Assembly: GCA_046342165.1 (NCBI GenBank)
Contig: JBKDPX010000013.1
Location: forward strand, 1-32,110
DNA from: Phycisphaerales bacterium
GTDB lineage: Bacteria; Planctomycetota; Phycisphaerae; Phycisphaerales; UBA1924
Direction: 5' to 3'
Length of the DNA stretch: 32,110 bases
The translations under genes were made by a program, and so were the position numbers. Shown piece after piece: positions 5,814 to 16,959 of the stretch. How positions within the stretch are numbered: position 1 is the first letter of the stretch; the number at the start of each line of letters is the position of its first letter. The notes beneath the pieces were generated by a model that saw nothing but the letters and a program-made list of their open reading frames with translations, did no database searches and was not told where the DNA came from.

Positions 5814-5887
5814 CGGGGTGTAGCGCAGCTTGGTAGCGCGTTTCGTTCGGGACGAAAAGGTCGCTGGTTCAAATCCAGTCACCCCGA
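5814..5887 (+). tRNA. tRNA-Pro (anticodon CGG), no encoded CCA
   Basis: I folded the cloverleaf by hand. Acceptor is CGGGGTG/CACCCCG, D-stem GCGC/GCGC, anticodon stem TTTCG/CGAAA with loop TTCGGGA (anticodon CGG, G37). The variable loop is AGGTC, the T-arm is GCTGG-TTCAAAT-CCAGT, and the discriminator is A. Total length is 74 nt. Confidence 0.95.
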
Positions 5888-11175: not shown

Positions 11176-12783
11176 ATGGACAATTTGGGTGAATGTGACA
11201 TCGTGCTCAAAGGCGGCATGACGAGCGGTGTCTTGTATCCGGCATTGCTTGCGAAACTCTCGACGCGATTTCGGTTTCGCGGGCTCGGCGGATCATCGGC
11301 GGGTGCGATCGCCGCGGCGCTCGGTGCCGCTGCGGAGTACGGTCGTCGGCATTCCAATCCGCATGCATTCAAGCAGTTGGGCTCCATCTCCGACGAGTTG
11401 CGGAATCCCGAAAGAGTCTCATCTCTGTTCGAGCCAGACGCACAGACCCGTCCACTGTTTGAGAAGATCAATCTCGTACTGAGCCGAGAAGAGGGATTCC
11501 GCCCGCTTCGCGCATTGAAGAGATTTCGTACGGCCGTGAACTTCGTAACGGATGATCGTGCGTTTGAGCCGTGGTTGCGCAACGGCATGGGGCTTTGCAC
11601 CGGAATGGCGCAGGGGCGTTCCGGCATCGCTTTGGTTCCATGGATTCACGCACATCTCAACGCACTCGCGGGTATTCGATCGGATGATGTTCTCTCCTTC
11701 GGAATGCTTCGAAATCATGAACGGCGTATTGATCTCAAGCTCGTGGCCACAGCACTCGAGATTGCGACAAGAGTTGATCTGCCTCTCCATGACGCACGCT
11801 GGGGGTTTGACCCGTCAAAGTGGCGCCGGATCTTTCCCAAATCTGTCATCGATTTCATGATTCAACGAGCGGCGCCGCGAACCGTGTCGTACATGCCAAC
11901 CGAATTGATTCCGTTTCCGGCAATCGACGATCTTCCCGTGATTGTCGCCGTGCGAATGAGCATGGCGTTCCCCGGTTTGTTCACGCCTGTTCCGGTTGCG
12001 ATTCCCGATCCCTCTCGGCGCGGCGAATATGTGAACATCCATCTGGCTGATGGAGGAATCACAAGCAATCTGCCGTCAACCCTCTGTGACGAACCGATTC
12101 CCGAGCATCCTGTTTTTGTCGAGAATCTGCGATACGGCTCCGCGCCCGGACGCCGTAGTCGCCGCGGGGTTGATTCCTCCGGAGTGTGGATGCCACGCAG
12201 CGCCGGAGACGGAAACCTGGATCTCGTCGAGACGATCGAAAGCAGATGTTCGCGGCAAACCGTGATCAATCTCACCGCTTCGGTGATCACGGCGGCGCGA
12301 ACTTGGACTGACAATCGGTGGCTTCGCATGCCGGGATATCGTGAGCGAATCGTTGAAGTATGGCTTGATCCCGATGAAGGCGGATTCAATCTTCGCATGA
12401 ACGAGCGATCCTCCGACAAGCTCATCAGCAAAGGTGAACGCGCGGCAGACATGTTGATCCATCGATACGCCGCAGATGCAAACGGTCGAAGTGATGGTTT
12501 CCTGAGACATGCTCGTCACCGAAGGCGCATATTGACCAGATCGATGATCCGCTTCGCGAATCGATGGTCTCGCAACTCGCTCAAAAGCGCATGGAGCGAA
12601 GCAACATCCGAAGCGACATGCCACAATGTCCTGGCGGTTGAGGATGCGATTCGACGCATCAATGCCGTCAACACCGAAGCGAAGTGCACGTCGCGTTGTC
12701 GATGCTGCGGTTCGCGCGGTGGTGTTCCAAGGCTCATGTTCAACGGGGACTTGGAAGATGTAACCGATGATCACAGCCGATGA
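11176..12783 (+). CDS. Patatin-like phospholipase with a ~200-aa uncharacterised C-terminal region
   Basis: GGAGGGGG sits immediately upstream of the ATG, 18 nt after the M60-like stop. The glycine-rich oxyanion motif is KGGMTSG, the GxSxG nucleophile is GGSSAG, and the catalytic-dyad Asp lies in LADGGITSN. There is no signal peptide. Confidence 0.8.
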   Translation: MDNLGECDIVLKGGMTSGVLYPALLAKLSTRFRFRGLGGSSAGAIAAALGAAAEYGRRHSNPHAFKQLGSISDELRNPERVSSLFEPDAQTRPLFEKINLVLSREEGFRPLRALKRFRTAVNFVTDDRAFEPWLRNGMGLCTGMAQGRSGIALVPWIHAHLNALAGIRSDDVLSFGMLRNHERRIDLKLVATALEIATRVDLPLHDARWGFDPSKWRRIFPKSVIDFMIQRAAPRTVSYMPTELIPFPAIDDLPVIVAVRMSMAFPGLFTPVPVAIPDPSRRGEYVNIHLADGGITSNLPSTLCDEPIPEHPVFVENLRYGSAPGRRSRRGVDSSGVWMPRSAGDGNLDLVETIESRCSRQTVINLTASVITAARTWTDNRWLRMPGYRERIVEVWLDPDEGGFNLRMNERSSDKLISKGERAADMLIHRYAADANGRSDGFLRHARHRRRILTRSMIRFANRWSRNSLKSAWSEATSEATCHNVLAVEDAIRRINAVNTEAKCTSRCRCCGSRGGVPRLMFNGDLEDVTDDHSR

Positions 12784-12818
12784 CCCGCATGTCGAGCGGC
12801 GACTTCCGAATCGTTCGC

Positions 12819-12847
12819 TTGACTTGTGAGAGAAGCACGCCAATATT
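12819..12847 (+). promoter_or_regulatory. Sigma-70-type promoter of the riboswitch-led met/asd operon
   Basis: TTGACT (12819-12824), 17-nt spacer, AATATT (12842-12847). The predicted transcription start near 12854 lies 2 nt before the first aptamer helix. Confidence 0.55.
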
Positions 12848-12855
12848 GAGCCGAA

Positions 12856-12956
12856 GCATCAAGAGTTCCGGAGCGCCTCGACGTTCCGGACGGCAACCGA
12901 GCTCGCCACGCGCGTGCCACGGTGCCGAGGCCAGCCCCCGGCGTGGGGAACGATGC
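12856..12956 (+). promoter_or_regulatory. SAM-I-clan riboswitch aptamer (SAM-I-like core with a continuous P2 and no obvious K-turn)
   Basis: Elements in order: P1 GCATC (12856-60) / GATGC (12952-56); J1/2 AAGAG; P2 TCCGGAGCG (12867-75) / CGTTCCGGA (12882-90) with loop CCTCGA. P3 is GGCAACC (12892-98) / GGTGCC (12921-26), the conserved SAM-I strings. J3/4 GAGG (12927-30) is complementary to the P2 loop CCTC (pseudoknot). P4 is CCCC (12935-38) / GGGG (12945-48), followed by AAC before the P1 3' strand. It lies upstream of a methionine-pathway operon. Confidence 0.75.
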
Positions 12957-13027
12957 GGATGACACTCGATTCGGGTGGTCATCAAAAATCAGCGGCGACG
13001 TTCGCCGCGCCACGCCGAGTATGTCCG

Positions 13028-13056
13028 CTTGATGCCGTGAAGGAGCTCACGGCATG
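13028..13056 (+). promoter_or_regulatory. Riboswitch expression platform: hairpin sequestering the SD and start codon, plus the anti-sequestor target
   Basis: ATGCCGTGA (13032-40) pairs perfectly with TCACGGCAT (13047-55). The 6-nt loop AGGAGC holds the SD, and the stem includes the A and T of the ATG at 13054. CTTGATGC (13028-35) is the exact reverse complement of GCATCAAG (12856-63), the aptamer P1 5' strand plus J1/2. Confidence 0.65.
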
Positions 13057-14256
13057 TCGACGTCATTCGTTTCTCTCGATCATTCCACACTCTGCGCGCA
13101 GGCGGGATCCGGCACGAACAGCGGTGATCCGCTTCGCCCGCCGATCATCCAGTCCACGACCTTCCGTCGCACCGATCTCGATGTGTCCTCGCCGCATGCG
13201 TATTCGCGAGTGTCGAATCCCACCGTTGCCGCCCTTGAAGCCGAACTCGGTGCGCTCGAACAGGCGCCTCCCTCGGTGTGTTTCAGCACGGGTCTCGCGG
13301 CGGAAACCGCACTTTTTCTTTCCATCCTCGCGGCAGGTGATCACATCATCTGCGGTCGCTCGGTCTACGGCGGAACAACGAGATTGATCACGCGCATCCT
13401 CTCGCGGCTTGGAGTTGAGAGCACATTCGTCGATGCAACGGATTTGCCGCAAGTTGCGAGTGCGGTGAAAAGAAATACAAAACTTATATTTATCGAATCC
13501 CCGGCGAACCCCACGCTGGAACTCACCGACATCAGCGGCGTCGCATCGATCGCGCGCGCCGCAGGCGTGTTGCTCGCCGTTGATAACACCTTCCTGACGC
13601 CGATCTTCCAACAACCGCTGGACCTCGGCGCCGACATATCCGTCTATTCCACTACAAAGCTCATAGACGGACATTCCGCCGCGCTCGGCGGTGCGTTGAC
13701 TTCAAGAGACGAGAAACTGCTCGATGAAATCCGTTTCATCCGTAAATCGACGGGCGCGATTCAGACTCCTCAGAACGCATCGCTGACCCTGCAAGGGGTG
13801 AAAACACTCGCTCTTCGGGCGAAGCGACAGGCTGAAAATGCCGATCTCATCGCTCGGTGGCTCCGCGATCGCCGGGAGATACGGACCGTGTCGTACCCGT
13901 CTCTGGCGAGTGATCCGAATCAGCGTCGGATCGCCGCGGCTCAGCACACCGGCGGACACGGCTCCGTGATCGGGCTGGAATTGCAAGGCGGACTCGCTTC
14001 GGCGAGGGAGTTCATGCGCGGACTGAAGCTTTGCAAACTGGTCGAACACGTCGGTTCCGTTGAAACGTTGATCACGCACTCCGCAAGCATGACGCATGCG
14101 GATGTGCCGCGAGAGGATCGGCTTAAGGCTGGAATCACGGATGGATTCCTGCGCATTTCGGTCGGAATCGAATCGTGCGAAGCGATCATCGATGATCTTC
14201 GTGCAGGGTTGAGAGAAGTGACGTTGTGTTGTGGTGAGGAGGTCGGGTGTGTCTGA
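13054..14256 (+). CDS. Cys/Met-metabolism PLP-dependent enzyme (cystathionine gamma-synthase / O-acylhomoserine sulfhydrylase family)
   Basis: YSRVSNPTVAALEAELGALE, DNTFLTPIFQQPLDLGADISVYSTTKLIDGHSAALGG (PLP lysine in STTK) and HSASMTH are hallmarks of the trans-sulfuration family. The exact reaction cannot be assigned from sequence alone. Confidence 0.88.
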   Translation: MSTSFVSLDHSTLCAQAGSGTNSGDPLRPPIIQSTTFRRTDLDVSSPHAYSRVSNPTVAALEAELGALEQAPPSVCFSTGLAAETALFLSILAAGDHIICGRSVYGGTTRLITRILSRLGVESTFVDATDLPQVASAVKRNTKLIFIESPANPTLELTDISGVASIARAAGVLLAVDNTFLTPIFQQPLDLGADISVYSTTKLIDGHSAALGGALTSRDEKLLDEIRFIRKSTGAIQTPQNASLTLQGVKTLALRAKRQAENADLIARWLRDRREIRTVSYPSLASDPNQRRIAAAQHTGGHGSVIGLELQGGLASAREFMRGLKLCKLVEHVGSVETLITHSASMTHADVPREDRLKAGITDGFLRISVGIESCEAIIDDLRAGLREVTLCCGEEVGCV

Positions 14257-15919
14257 CATCAAAACGATCGTCCTGAAGTTCGGCGGCTCAGTCCTTGCGG
14301 ACGAGCAGAGCCTGACACAGGCCGTGCATGAGATCTATCGCTGGAAGCGTGACGGCTGGCGTGTTGTTGCGGTCGTCTCGGCGTTCGCCGGCAAAACGAA
14401 TGCGCTCATCGCGGCGGCCGCGAAATCATTTGATCGCGCGTTGCCTGCGTCTGTCGCGCCCGTCGTCGCCGGCGGCGAACTCGAGAGCGCCGCGTTGCTT
14501 GGCGTTCTGCTCGATCGAGCGGGCATTCCCGCTTCGGTGATCTCACCGATGGCGTTGGGCCTTCTCGCGCGAGGCGATGCGCTCAACGCCGTGCCGTGTG
14601 AACTCAACACGAAACTTCTCGAACGCGCACTCGAAGCGGATGGCGTCGTGGTCGTTCCCGGCTTCATCGGCGTTGATGATTTCGGCAGAACCGTGTTGCT
14701 CGGTCGAGGCGGTTCGGACCTCAGCGCGTTGTTCATCGCTTCGAAGATTCGCGGCGCGCGATGTCGGCTCGTGAAAGATGTTCACTCGTTCTACGACCGT
14801 AATCCGAATCTGCCCGGGCCGCCCGTGAAGCGATACGTGCGTTCATCTTGGAACGATGCGCTCTCGACCGACGGGAAGGTCATCATGCATCAGGCCGTCA
14901 AACTGGCGCAGGATGCGGGACTTCATTTCGAACTCGGTTGCGTGAACTCGGCCGATCCGTCCGTCATCGGCGGTGATCGTTCTGAATTGGTGATCGCGAA
15001 GATGGAGCATCGCCCGCTTCGGGTCGCATTGCTCGGACTCGGAAGCGTCGGTCGCGGCGTCTTCGATCATTTGCGTGCGCAACCCAAGCGATTTGAAGTT
15101 GTATCAGTCGTCGCGCGTGATGTTGAAAGACATGTCGCCGCCGGTGTGCCGCGAGAGTTGTTCGTTGATCCGAAGAATTCTTCGTATGATGTTCTGGTTG
15201 AAGCGGTCGGAGGCATCGAGCCCGCGCTGACATTCGTTCGCGGCGCGCTCGAGGCCGGACGTCATGTGGTGACGGCGAACAAAGCACTCATCGCCGCGCA
15301 TGGTGATGAGTTGCGCGCGTTGTGCAAGCGAACCGGCGCGACGCTTCGCTATTCGGCGAGTGTCGGCGGCGGATTGCCCGTGATCGAAACGGTCAGACGC
15401 ATTGCGTCCCGGGGCGTCGTTTCGATTGAAGCCGTGATGAACGGAACATCGAATTTCGTGTTGGATCTCGTGCGCTCTGGGAAGAGTCTCGCTGATGCGG
15501 TCGCGGAAGCCCAGCGACTCGGTTTCGCCGAAGCCGATCCGTCACGCGATCTTGACGGTCGTGATGCGGGCGACAAAGTGACTGTGATAGCGCAGGAACT
15601 GGGCGTCAAGATCGGCGAGATCCGGCGTGTCGGAATCACTGCCGAGTCCGCTGCTGCCGCATTGGCCGGCGGAACCAGGGTTCCTCGCCAGGTCGCTCGT
15701 CTGAATGTCAAGACGGGTGAAGCGAGCGTTGCGGTCGAAGGTGTGGATCCTTCGCATCCGTTGGCACTGTTGCGCGAAGAGCAGAACGGTGTGATCTTCA
15801 CGCTTGCGGACGGTTCGAAGGTTCACCTGATCGGTCGCGGCGCGGGCCGTTGGCCCACGGCGGAGTCGGTGATGGCGGATGTATTGGAAATCGCCAGAGA
15901 GTCGGAGGTGCGTTCATGA
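14249..15919 (+). CDS. Compact bifunctional aspartokinase / homoserine dehydrogenase (no ACT domains evident)
   Basis: The GTG at 14249 is preceded by GAGGAGG (14236-42) and overlaps the upstream stop (GTGTCTGA). The N-terminal ~245 aa carry kinase motifs VLKFGGS and LGRGGSDLSA. From about nt 15011 the sequence is homoserine dehydrogenase: RVALLGLGSVGRGV, ANKALIA, MNGTSNFVL, GFAEADPSRDLDGRDAGDK. Confidence 0.85.
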   Translation: MSDIKTIVLKFGGSVLADEQSLTQAVHEIYRWKRDGWRVVAVVSAFAGKTNALIAAAAKSFDRALPASVAPVVAGGELESAALLGVLLDRAGIPASVISPMALGLLARGDALNAVPCELNTKLLERALEADGVVVVPGFIGVDDFGRTVLLGRGGSDLSALFIASKIRGARCRLVKDVHSFYDRNPNLPGPPVKRYVRSSWNDALSTDGKVIMHQAVKLAQDAGLHFELGCVNSADPSVIGGDRSELVIAKMEHRPLRVALLGLGSVGRGVFDHLRAQPKRFEVVSVVARDVERHVAAGVPRELFVDPKNSSYDVLVEAVGGIEPALTFVRGALEAGRHVVTANKALIAAHGDELRALCKRTGATLRYSASVGGGLPVIETVRRIASRGVVSIEAVMNGTSNFVLDLVRSGKSLADAVAEAQRLGFAEADPSRDLDGRDAGDKVTVIAQELGVKIGEIRRVGITAESAAAALAGGTRVPRQVARLNVKTGEASVAVEGVDPSHPLALLREEQNGVIFTLADGSKVHLIGRGAGRWPTAESVMADVLEIARESEVRS

Positions 15920-16959
15920 GTCTCGAAGTGTTCACGACAATCGCCATCGTCGGTGCCACGGGCGCCGTGGGGCGTGAAGCGTTGGCGATTCTCGCCGCGC
16001 GCGGCGTACCGAAGGAGCGCATCGTTCCGCTCGCCTCGGAGCGATCAGTCGGTATGTGTTTGCCGTATGGAGATGATGCGGTGATCGTCCGCGCGTTGAC
16101 GCATGAAGCGGTTGAAAGCTGTGATGCCGCGATCTTCGCAGCCAGCGCGGATATCGCAAAGGAATACGGGCCTCGTGCCGCTGCCAAGGGGGTTGTCGTC
16201 GTTGATAACTCCTCAGCGTTCCGCGCGCATCCTGATGTGCCGCTCGTTGTGCCGGAGATCAACGCGCAGGGAATCGAAGGTTCGAATCTGATCGCGAATC
16301 CGAATTGCTCGACGATCATCATGCTGCTTGCGCTGGAACCTTTGAAGCGCGCGTTCGGAGTGCGCGAGATCACGGTGTCGACGTATCAAGCGGTGTCGGG
16401 CGCGGGCATCGAAGCCGTCGGCGAGATGTACAACCAGTCGCGCGAGAAGCTTGATGCGAAGAAACTTATATCTCGCGTCTTTGCGGAGCCGATCGCGTTC
16501 AACGTGTTCCCGCATGAGTCGACGATGGATCCCGACACAGGACTCAACGGCGAGGAGTCCAAGATGATCAGCGAGTCGCGCCGCATCTGGGCCGATCCGT
16601 CGCTGCGGATCTTTCCGACCTGCGTGCGCGTGCCCGTGGAGCGCGCGCACAGTCAGGCGATCATCGTCACGCTCGGCGAGAAAGTAACAAAGTCGCAACT
16701 TGTAAACGCCTACGAAGGCGCGGCGGGTGTATCGCTCGCGGATCTCAAGTCCGGTCCGCCCACGCCCCTCAAGGCCTCAGGGCGCGACAATGTTCTCGTC
16801 GGACGCTTGCGCATGGACCCTTCCGGCGATCCCTATCGCATCGGTCTGTGGGCCTGCGGCGATCAGCTTCGCAAGGGCGCGGCATTGAACGCGATTCAGA
16901 TTCTGGATCGCAAGGGGCTCTCGGGTCACTCGACCAGGTGTCTTCGAAACGCCTCCTGA
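15916..16959 (+). CDS. asd: Aspartate-semialdehyde dehydrogenase
   Basis: The ATG at 15916 overlaps the upstream stop (ATGA). Motifs are IAIVGATGAVGRE (NADP fold), the active-site NPNCSTI, and QAVSGAG. Confidence 0.93.
   Translation: MSLEVFTTIAIVGATGAVGREALAILAARGVPKERIVPLASERSVGMCLPYGDDAVIVRALTHEAVESCDAAIFAASADIAKEYGPRAAAKGVVVVDNSSAFRAHPDVPLVVPEINAQGIEGSNLIANPNCSTIIMLLALEPLKRAFGVREITVSTYQAVSGAGIEAVGEMYNQSREKLDAKKLISRVFAEPIAFNVFPHESTMDPDTGLNGEESKMISESRRIWADPSLRIFPTCVRVPVERAHSQAIIVTLGEKVTKSQLVNAYEGAAGVSLADLKSGPPTPLKASGRDNVLVGRLRMDPSGDPYRIGLWACGDQLRKGAALNAIQILDRKGLSGHSTRCLRNAS

Follow-up and report, generated by a model that had tools for sequence, protein, structure and literature searches.

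The leader and the operon it precedes

The DNA analysed here, called the window below, is the whole 32,110-nucleotide (nt) stretch of contig JBKDPX010000013.1 from a Phycisphaerales bacterium; coordinates are positions in it throughout, on the + strand unless marked otherwise. Between a patatin-like gene and a methionine-pathway operon lies a leader that is very probably a riboswitch of the SAM-I/IV family, sensing S-adenosylmethionine (SAM) and repressing translation of the operon. The downstream genes are a homoserine/methionine pathway operon, the type of target expected for a SAM riboswitch. These genes, together with tandem A-U pairs in helix P1, point indirectly to SAM as the likely ligand. 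The locus is laid out as follows:

11176-12783, patatin-like gene, the upstream neighbour of the leader
12819-13056, + strand, the leader element as a whole: conserved promoter, SAM-clan aptamer and start-codon-burying hairpin
13054-14256, + strand, first regulated gene, a Cys/Met-metabolism pyridoxal 5'-phosphate (PLP) enzyme (PF01053, 389 bits)
14231-15919, + strand, second operon gene, a fused aspartokinase / homoserine dehydrogenase
about 15934-16959, + strand, third operon gene, aspartate-semialdehyde dehydrogenase
14231-16959, + strand, the downstream remainder of the operon as a whole

Within the leader, the following parts were assigned:

12819-12847, + strand, sigma-70-type promoter: -35 TTGACT at 12819-24, a 17-nt spacer and -10 AATATT at 12842-47
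12856-12860, + strand, 5' strand of P1 (GCAUC), pairing with 12952-56 in the aptamer fold or with 13031-35 in the alternative fold
12861-12864, + strand, J1/2 (AAGA), part of the invariant AUCAAGAG core (alignment columns C5-G13)
12865-12891, + strand, P2: G12865-C12891, a bulged U12866, a 9-bp stem (12867-75/12882-90) and the loop CCUCGA (12876-81)
12876-12879, + strand, 5' strand of the pseudoknot PK-1: CCUC of the P2 loop, complementary to GAGG at 12927-30
12892-12926, + strand, P3, with the conserved GGCAACCGAG...GGUGCC core
12927-12935, + strand, J3/4 (GAGGCCAGC), its 5' part pairing with the P2 loop and its 3' part, in relatives, with segment e
12936-12948, + strand, P4 hairpin within the junction (CCCC-GGCGU-GGGG)
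12952-12956, + strand, 3' strand of P1 (GAUGC), from the base-by-base check and RNAalifold
12958-12983, + strand, P5 hairpin (GAUGAC...GUCAUC), homologous to the SAM-I/IV 3' hairpin and aligned by the RF01725 model
12984-12988, + strand, A-rich linker (C-AAAA), resembling the SAM-I/IV consensus CAAaaaA
12992-13008, + strand, P6 hairpin (GCGGCGA-CGU-UCGCCGC)
13010-13017, + strand, segment d (CCACGCCG), partner strand of 12939-46 in the P4 loop and 3' arm
13022-13026, + strand, segment e (UGUCC), which could form a helix containing one mismatch with 12929-33 of J3/4, a match first noted by eye and also supported by the fold in which anti-P1 was forced
13028-13035, + strand, anti-P1 (CUUGAUGC), the exact complement of GCAUCAAG at 12856-63
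13032-13055, + strand, sequestering Shine-Dalgarno (SD) hairpin, a perfect 9 bp (13032-40/13047-55)

A preliminary description of this leader had called its promoter, aptamer, pseudoknot and start-codon logic complete. The features that it quoted are all present, but P4, P5, P6 and the element in which segments d and e pair with P4 and J3/4 (the anti-J3/4-P4 element) had been overlooked. Checking base by base bore out the closing pairs of P1 (GCAUC 12856-60 with GAUGC 12952-56), the continuous 9-bp P2 without a kink-turn (K-turn), the perfect 9-bp hairpin holding the SD and start codon, and the exact complementarity of 13028-35 to 12856-63. The TTGACT-N17-AATATT promoter was likewise found as described, at 12819-12847. 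Four pairs of the P2-loop/J3-4 pseudoknot, for which 4-5 bp had been proposed, stand and covary; the fifth would need C12926, which already closes P3.

Relatives of the leader

The closest relatives of the first gene were searched in contigs taken at one genome per species, and were found in metagenome-assembled genomes (MAGs) of Phycisphaerales, Phycisphaeraceae and Pirellulaceae at 51-63% identity. The core string stood at the equivalent upstream place in 10 of 11 Planctomycetota loci, and it was seen upstream of none of the orthologs from other phyla among the loci examined. In these 10/11 planctomycete leaders, as in the metagenomic loci below, the complete architecture is kept, with compensatory changes. 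In one Planctomycetota MAG (L008:2500-3005) the orthologous PLP-enzyme gene has an upstream region without a recognisable riboswitch.

Metagenomes were scanned with the pattern ATCAAGAG-N-GGCAACCGAG-N-GGTGCCGAG, which occurs in at least 120 loci; one of these, L109, is nearly identical to the window. In all, the loci listed gave 131 leaders with 100 distinct aptamer sequences. Downstream genes were read from the start codons that the hairpins define, and a gene of the Cys/Met PLP enzyme family lay downstream in 74 of 77 leaders among the matches listed. In six loci (L081, L088, L098, L175, L114 and L188) this aptamer subclass stands upstream of an AAA-ATPase-like protein with the Walker A motif GKHGTAKS, an ATPase with no evident link to SAM.

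Promoter, aptamer and expression platform

The promoter matches the consensus at 9/12 positions, and the promoter scan gave two sites in this region, for an expectation of 0.0 from shuffled sequence. The motif TTGAC-N17-19-[T/A]AnnnT was kept in 82 of 111 distinct homologous upstream regions, ending 5-13 nt before P1; the most frequent distance from the -10 end to P1 was 7-8 nt, and the chance expectation is about 0.001 per site. Given this conserved position, transcription probably starts at P1 or a few nt before it.

Fifty-six leaders were aligned with MAFFT (alignment A1), and the counts of pairs and changes that follow refer to them unless another set is named. All five pairs of P1 are formed in 56/56 leaders and its tandem A-U/U-A pairs are invariant; these presumably match the sulfonium-recognition site established for SAM-I (Montange and Batey 2006). 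The SAM-clan core, that is, AUCAAGAG and the GGCAACC...GGUGCC of P3, is present in the window, and its positions are invariant in the alignment. P2 is unbroken by any internal loop or K-turn; its nine stacked pairs are all standard, a single bulged U at its base is the only irregularity, and double changes occur in 7 of its 10 pairs. For PK-1, the pair of alignment columns 24 and 100 shows CG in 19 leaders and UA in 16, and matched variants include GAGGC/GCCUC, GAGGU/ACCUC and GAGAC/GUCUC. At least four Watson-Crick pairs could form in 56 of 84 distinct combinations of the two strands, and none in 15.

P4 is present in 100/100 unique aptamers with highly divergent stems, for example CCCC/GGGG, CCUGAAA/UUUCAGG, CCUUGC/GCAAGG and ACUCCC/GGGAGU. 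Since P4 lies between J3/4 and the P1 3' strand in every aptamer, the core is a four-way junction. A few leaders (L101, L195, L111/L131 and L166) have a second hairpin or a much larger P4 in the junction, and might form a five-way junction.

After P1, double changes occur in 6/6 pairs of P5 and in 7/7 pairs of P6, and the linker columns (C131, A132-134) are at least 90% conserved. Near the base of P5 (A1 columns 164-165/217-218, window 12959-60/12981-82) some leaders carry A·C or C·A mismatches, counted by RNAalifold as AC 5 and CA 5; other leaders have U·G or Watson-Crick pairs there.

The pairing of segment d with P4 is mutually exclusive with the P4 hairpin, and shows double changes in 5/6 loop pairs; example columns for the P4 loop and segment d have GC 36 with AU 12, and UA 41 with CG 5. 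Segment e, which in the window has the mismatch noted above, pairs perfectly with J3/4 in relatives (CUGGCC/GGCCAG and GCUAGCC/GGCUAGC). The GAUGC core of anti-P1 pairs in 56/56 leaders, and the 5' arm of the SD hairpin begins with the last 4 nt of anti-P1. In that hairpin the loop carries the SD (AGGAG, 13041-45) and the stem the AU of the start AUG. This hairpin is found in all 64 fully parsed distinct leaders, its 3' arm ending ..GCAU|G at the start codon in each, and it covaries, with double changes in 5/9 pairs.

Four low-GC metagenomic leaders (L083, L091, L110 and L128) have a different platform layout: anti-P1 UUUGAUGCCAUAG pairs with a distal CUAUGG..CAUC just before the SD AAAGGAG, with an extra hairpin between.

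Support for the two folds

The aptamer fold (P1-P6, the SD hairpin and PK-1) had 92.8% of cells paired in A1. Changes on both sides were seen in 30/53 pairs, and 0/500 column shuffles were as good; slid registers gave only 32-44% paired. RNAalifold, run without a supplied structure, recovered P1, P2, P3, P4, P5, P6 and the full SD hairpin, with compensatory changes in 27/48 pairs of its consensus. The alternative fold (anti-P1, anti-P4 and a 5-bp hairpin remnant) had 89.9% of cells paired and 31 double-change pairs, and again 0/500 shuffles were as good.

A register-independent test compared duplex energies within leaders with those between leaders, using 300 permutations. J3/4 plus P4 with segments d-e gave z=-12.6, with 0/300 permutations as good; J3/4 against d-e gave z=-7.0, and segment d with the P4 region z=-9 to -12.6. 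Anti-P1 and the 5' arm with the hairpin 3' arm gave z=-9.2, and the P2 loop with J3/4 (PK-1) z=-4.8, each with 0/300 permutations as good. Unrelated region pairs, taken as negative controls, ranged from z=-2.1 to +0.6 (6-221/300 permutations as good), and the test was flat for the P2 loop with d-e, the P3 loop with d-e, P5 with the tail, and the P2 loop with the P3 loop. Conservation and covariation in the aligned leaders show the aptamer fold, the hairpin and the alternative pairing of d and e, and the anti-J3/4-P4 element is the best-supported part of the putative switch.

These data bear on whether there is a riboswitch here at all. A match arising by chance in GC-rich DNA between genes, or a coding region, would be in keeping with the sub-threshold Rfam score of the window (below), with the several open reading frames of 60-157 aa that overlap the gap, and with a single-sequence fold z-score of only -1.7. 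It would leave unexplained an architecture that over 100 distinct leaders keep, with compensation in 30 pairs and no shuffle in 500 as good, a position fixed relative to promoter and start codon, and a de novo alifold consensus that is the aptamer fold itself. Loop lengths moreover differ by non-multiples of three, and so would not be tolerable in a coding region. The covariation of both folds together with the RNAalifold result effectively refutes this explanation, to which we give almost no credence.

Rfam scores and family assignment

Several database scores weigh against a SAM-I/IV riboswitch. A whole-window Rfam scan at gathering thresholds returned only a tRNA, with no match in the riboswitch region, which was detected only by a permissive local scan of 12760-13100. 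There RF01725 (SAM-I/IV) matched 12851-12999 over its full length (model 1-99) with 36.9 bits (E=1.4e-4), below its gathering score of 41.1. Two further, lower-scoring matches of the same clan were suppressed in the local scan; the RF00162 match of the window scored under its RF01725 match and was masked by the clan filter. The RF01725 model aligns P1, P2, P3, the hairpin directly 3' of P1 and the A-rich tail, and takes the stretch from P3 to the P1 3' strand as an insertion. The score falls below gathering because the long insertions, P4 and the P5 loop, are handled as model inserts, and standard annotation misses the element because the score is just under the Rfam cut-off. The preliminary description had looked to a covariance-model hit above threshold: the window has none, at 36.9 against 41.1, but the leader of an ortholog (L002) passes with 41.3 bits. 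The covariation and conservation described above override, as comparative evidence, the sub-threshold score of the window.

No gathering score of any SAM-clan model was reached by any of 20 sampled relatives. The best model was RF01725 in 11 of them (30-39.5 bits) and RF00162 in 5 (28-32 bits, gathering score 44.4), and 4 had no match. Because of these split sub-threshold scores the subclass is placed between the RF01725 and RF00162 models. Rfam-based annotation thus overlooks the SAM riboswitches of this lineage almost entirely; with a model built for the subclass, over 100 elements would be recovered.

A classical SAM-I (S-box, RF00162) riboswitch, with the hairpins after P1 merely its expression platform, was also considered. 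It would account for the four-way junction with P4, the covarying P2-loop/J3-4 pseudoknot and the absence of a PK-2 signal (below), and RF00162 is the best model in 5/20 relatives. Against it, P2 is continuous and lacks the K-turn that is a defining SAM-I feature; RF00162 reaches only 28-32 bits of the 44.4 required; the window and 11/20 relatives score best against RF01725, which also aligns P5 and the CAAAA linker; and an optional junction P4 is already part of the published SAM-I/IV consensus. We regard a classical SAM-I assignment as very unlikely. The original placement of the leader in the SAM-I clan, nearer to SAM-I/IV than to classical SAM-I, is upheld by RF01725 being the best Rfam model and by the P2 without an internal loop.

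Comparison with known SAM riboswitches

The SAM-I/SAM-IV variant was defined by the common SAM-I/SAM-IV core and a P2 that no internal loop interrupts (Weinberg et al. 2010, PMC2864571). Its 2010 consensus structure line (SS_cons) has P1, P2 and P3, an optional junction P4, a post-P1 hairpin, and PK-2, the pseudoknot that joins the P3 loop to the 3' tail (PMC2864571). The leaders studied here share with SAM-I/IV (RF01725) the core AUCAAGAG and GGCAACC...GGUGCC, the tandem A-U pairs of P1, a P2 without an internal loop, a junction P4 (optional there), a hairpin that adjoins P1 on its 3' side and leads into a CAAA linker, and an SD a short way downstream, implying translational control. The 2010 alignment includes one sequence, JCVI_SCAF_1096628350211, with the identical GGUGCCGAGGUCAGCCC...GGGG..GAUGCGGC layout. 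Since the 2010 consensus and this sequence contain it, the aptamer architecture, including P4 and P5, was already known, and the window element is a member of the known SAM-I/IV family published in 2010, not of a new family. A new four-way-junction class was ruled out on the same grounds: the 2010 SS_cons already has the optional P4, the post-P1 hairpin and PK-2. Four accession prefixes of planctomycete reference genomes were searched for in the 2010 alignment files (PMC2864571) and none was found.

The leaders depart from SAM-I/IV as described in two pseudoknots. The 2010 authors saw in SAM-I/IV no capacity of the P2 tip to pair with J3/4 (PMC2864571), and the solved SAM-I/IV structure was described as lacking PK-1 (Zhang et al. 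2019), whereas in the planctomycete leaders these two segments can pair and their pairing covaries. Conversely, PK-2 is without covariation here, and where the tail strand would be there is P6. In the window UCGCC (12903-07, in P3) could pair with GGCGA (12994-98), a strand that doubles as the 5' arm of P6; across the 56 leaders, pairing of the P3 loop with the tail or P6 was no better within a leader than between leaders (z=-0.1 and -1.0). The duplex test had the power to detect a covarying PK-2, since it picked up the 4-5 bp of PK-1. A further departure is from the Rfam model, under whose gathering cut-off the window and 20/20 sampled relatives score.

With SAM-I (S-box, RF00162) the leaders share the four-way junction P1-P4, the P2-loop/J3-4 pseudoknot, the sequence of the ligand-binding core and target genes of methionine biosynthesis. 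Unlike SAM-I, they have a P2 without a K-turn, a conserved extra P5 and A-rich linker after P1, best RF00162 scores among relatives of 28-32 bits against 44.4 for gathering, and a probably translational platform in place of the terminator/antiterminator typical of Firmicutes SAM-I. SAM-IV (RF00634) is similar in its SAM-clan core, its post-P1 hairpin and its predicted translational control in high-GC bacteria. It lacks P4, has a P2 split by an internal loop and depends on PK-2 (Zhang et al. 2019), whereas every aptamer here has P4, P2 runs unbroken and PK-2 lacks support.

We tentatively raise the possibility that the planctomycete leaders are a distinct SAM-clan subclass bridging SAM-I and SAM-I/IV, with a four-way junction, a K-turn-less PK-1, a P5-CAAA module without PK-2, and a three-part anti-aptamer (anti-P4, anti-J3/4 and anti-P1) that would drive the start-codon hairpin; on balance we doubt that so separate a status is warranted. 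The element is mildly distinctive, in its covarying K-turn-less PK-1, in a PK-2 without signal and in 0/20 relatives reaching an Rfam gathering score. To a specialist it is unsurprising; no new ligand, fold or mechanism is revealed. The leaders are a natural test case for whether the SAM-I pseudoknot needs a K-turn; if PK-1 truly forms on a straight P2, the accepted K-turn requirement for the pseudoknot needs revision.

The proposed switch

With SAM bound, P1, P2, P3 and P4 would fold as a four-way junction, with the P2 loop usually pairing with J3/4, and the strand 13010-13035 would be left free. Because the bound aptamer would leave that strand free, its 3' end, AUGC, could complete the 9-bp hairpin 13032-13055 (about -15 kcal/mol), which would block initiation, its loop enclosing the SD and its stem the AU of the AUG. 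Without SAM, segment d would invade the P4 loop and 3' arm, segment e would pair with J3/4, and (CUU)GAUGC would pair with the P1 5' strand. The hairpin would then be reduced to a 5-bp remnant of about -6 kcal/mol and the start codon freed. Opening of the hairpin by anti-P1, so as to raise translation, fits the design suggested by the modelled folds.

Folding energies were computed for the window:

aptamer + full hairpin, -82.5 kcal/mol
anti-P4 + full hairpin, -84.5 kcal/mol
anti-P1 + anti-P4 + 5-bp remnant, -86.1 kcal/mol

The SD hairpin itself is worth -14.8 kcal/mol in full and -5.7 as the 5-bp remnant. Across the 56 leaders, the probability of P1 was about 0 in the ligand-free ensembles, that of anti-P4 exceeded 0.5 in 45/56, and the alternative fold was more stable than the aptamer fold in 47/56, by a median of 5.9 kcal/mol, a gap which the binding energy of SAM could plausibly overcome. 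Multiloop energies are poorly modelled in these calculations.

Translational repression by SAM through anti-P1 had been proposed in the preliminary description. The data agree with it and bear it out in part: the GAUGC core pairs in 56/56 leaders and G13031 is invariant. Several points weigh against the proposal. In unconstrained folding the full SD hairpin of the window was closed with a probability of about 0.95, and the family means for the ligand-free state were 0.75 for the hairpin top against 0.29 for anti-P1. Since the hairpin is mostly closed in folding, thermodynamics alone does not show that it opens without ligand. Segment e is degenerate in the window, and anti-P1 has one double change among the 56 leaders (L200), being too conserved to give a covariation signal.

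These points would be accommodated if the leader were a genuine SAM riboswitch whose SD hairpin stays closed in both states, its output being something other than release of the start codon by anti-P1. SAM would then act otherwise, for example on Rho access or on the RNase sensitivity of the released d-e strand, and the GAUGC/GCAUC match would be a by-product of a hairpin that needs GCAU opposite the start codon. The pairing of the hairpin top in ligand-free ensembles (mean 0.75, window about 0.95) and an anti-P1 essentially without covariation are what it predicts. It does not predict that G13031, which is outside the hairpin, is nevertheless invariant and always completes GAUGC opposite the invariant C12860; pairing with C12860 is the best explanation of that invariance. 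Segments d, e and anti-P1 are, moreover, collinear and nested, so that the covarying d/e helices would bring GAUGC beside the P1 5' strand. In L200 ACAUC, GAUGU, GGUGU and ACAU change jointly, the G->A change in P1 being matched in the P1 3' strand, in anti-P1 and in the hairpin 3' arm. In the window the alternative fold is 1.6 kcal/mol ahead of anti-P4 with the full hairpin, a difference within model error. We therefore consider a permanently closed hairpin unlikely, and retain start-codon release by anti-P1 as the proposed output.

On the leader's + strand the pattern scan gave no intrinsic terminator, which favours translational control and also tells against the closed-hairpin alternative. 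Transcription termination as the output was rejected for the same lack of a + strand terminator. Three terminator-like matches on the minus strand (12982-13013) are P6 and the A-rich linker read in reverse; there is no converging gene, and they were dismissed as an artefact of the scan. Also rejected was a bound-state pseudoknot of segment d with the P4 loop, in which five loop and two stem nt would have to pair without a linker; it is further disfavoured by the ligand-free ensembles, which form this helix in place of P4.

If it operates as proposed, the element explains feedback control of homoserine and methionine synthesis in this organism and in many Phycisphaerae-like planctomycetes, and the leader set is a clean, covariation-backed example of both states of a translational riboswitch.

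The operon genes and other features of the window

The product of 13054-14256 belongs to the cystathionine gamma-synthase / O-succinylhomoserine sulfhydrylase family and missed all equivalog cut-offs. Its gene overlaps the second operon gene by 26 nt (14231-14256). The tRNA returned by the Rfam scan (RF00005, 66.3 bits, 5814-5887, + strand) is the sole gathering-level match in the whole window. The open reading frame of the aspartate-semialdehyde dehydrogenase (15850-16959, + strand) has a listed TTG start at 15850 that is probably too early, because homology begins near residue 29; a start there would put the gene just past the stop of the preceding gene at 15919.

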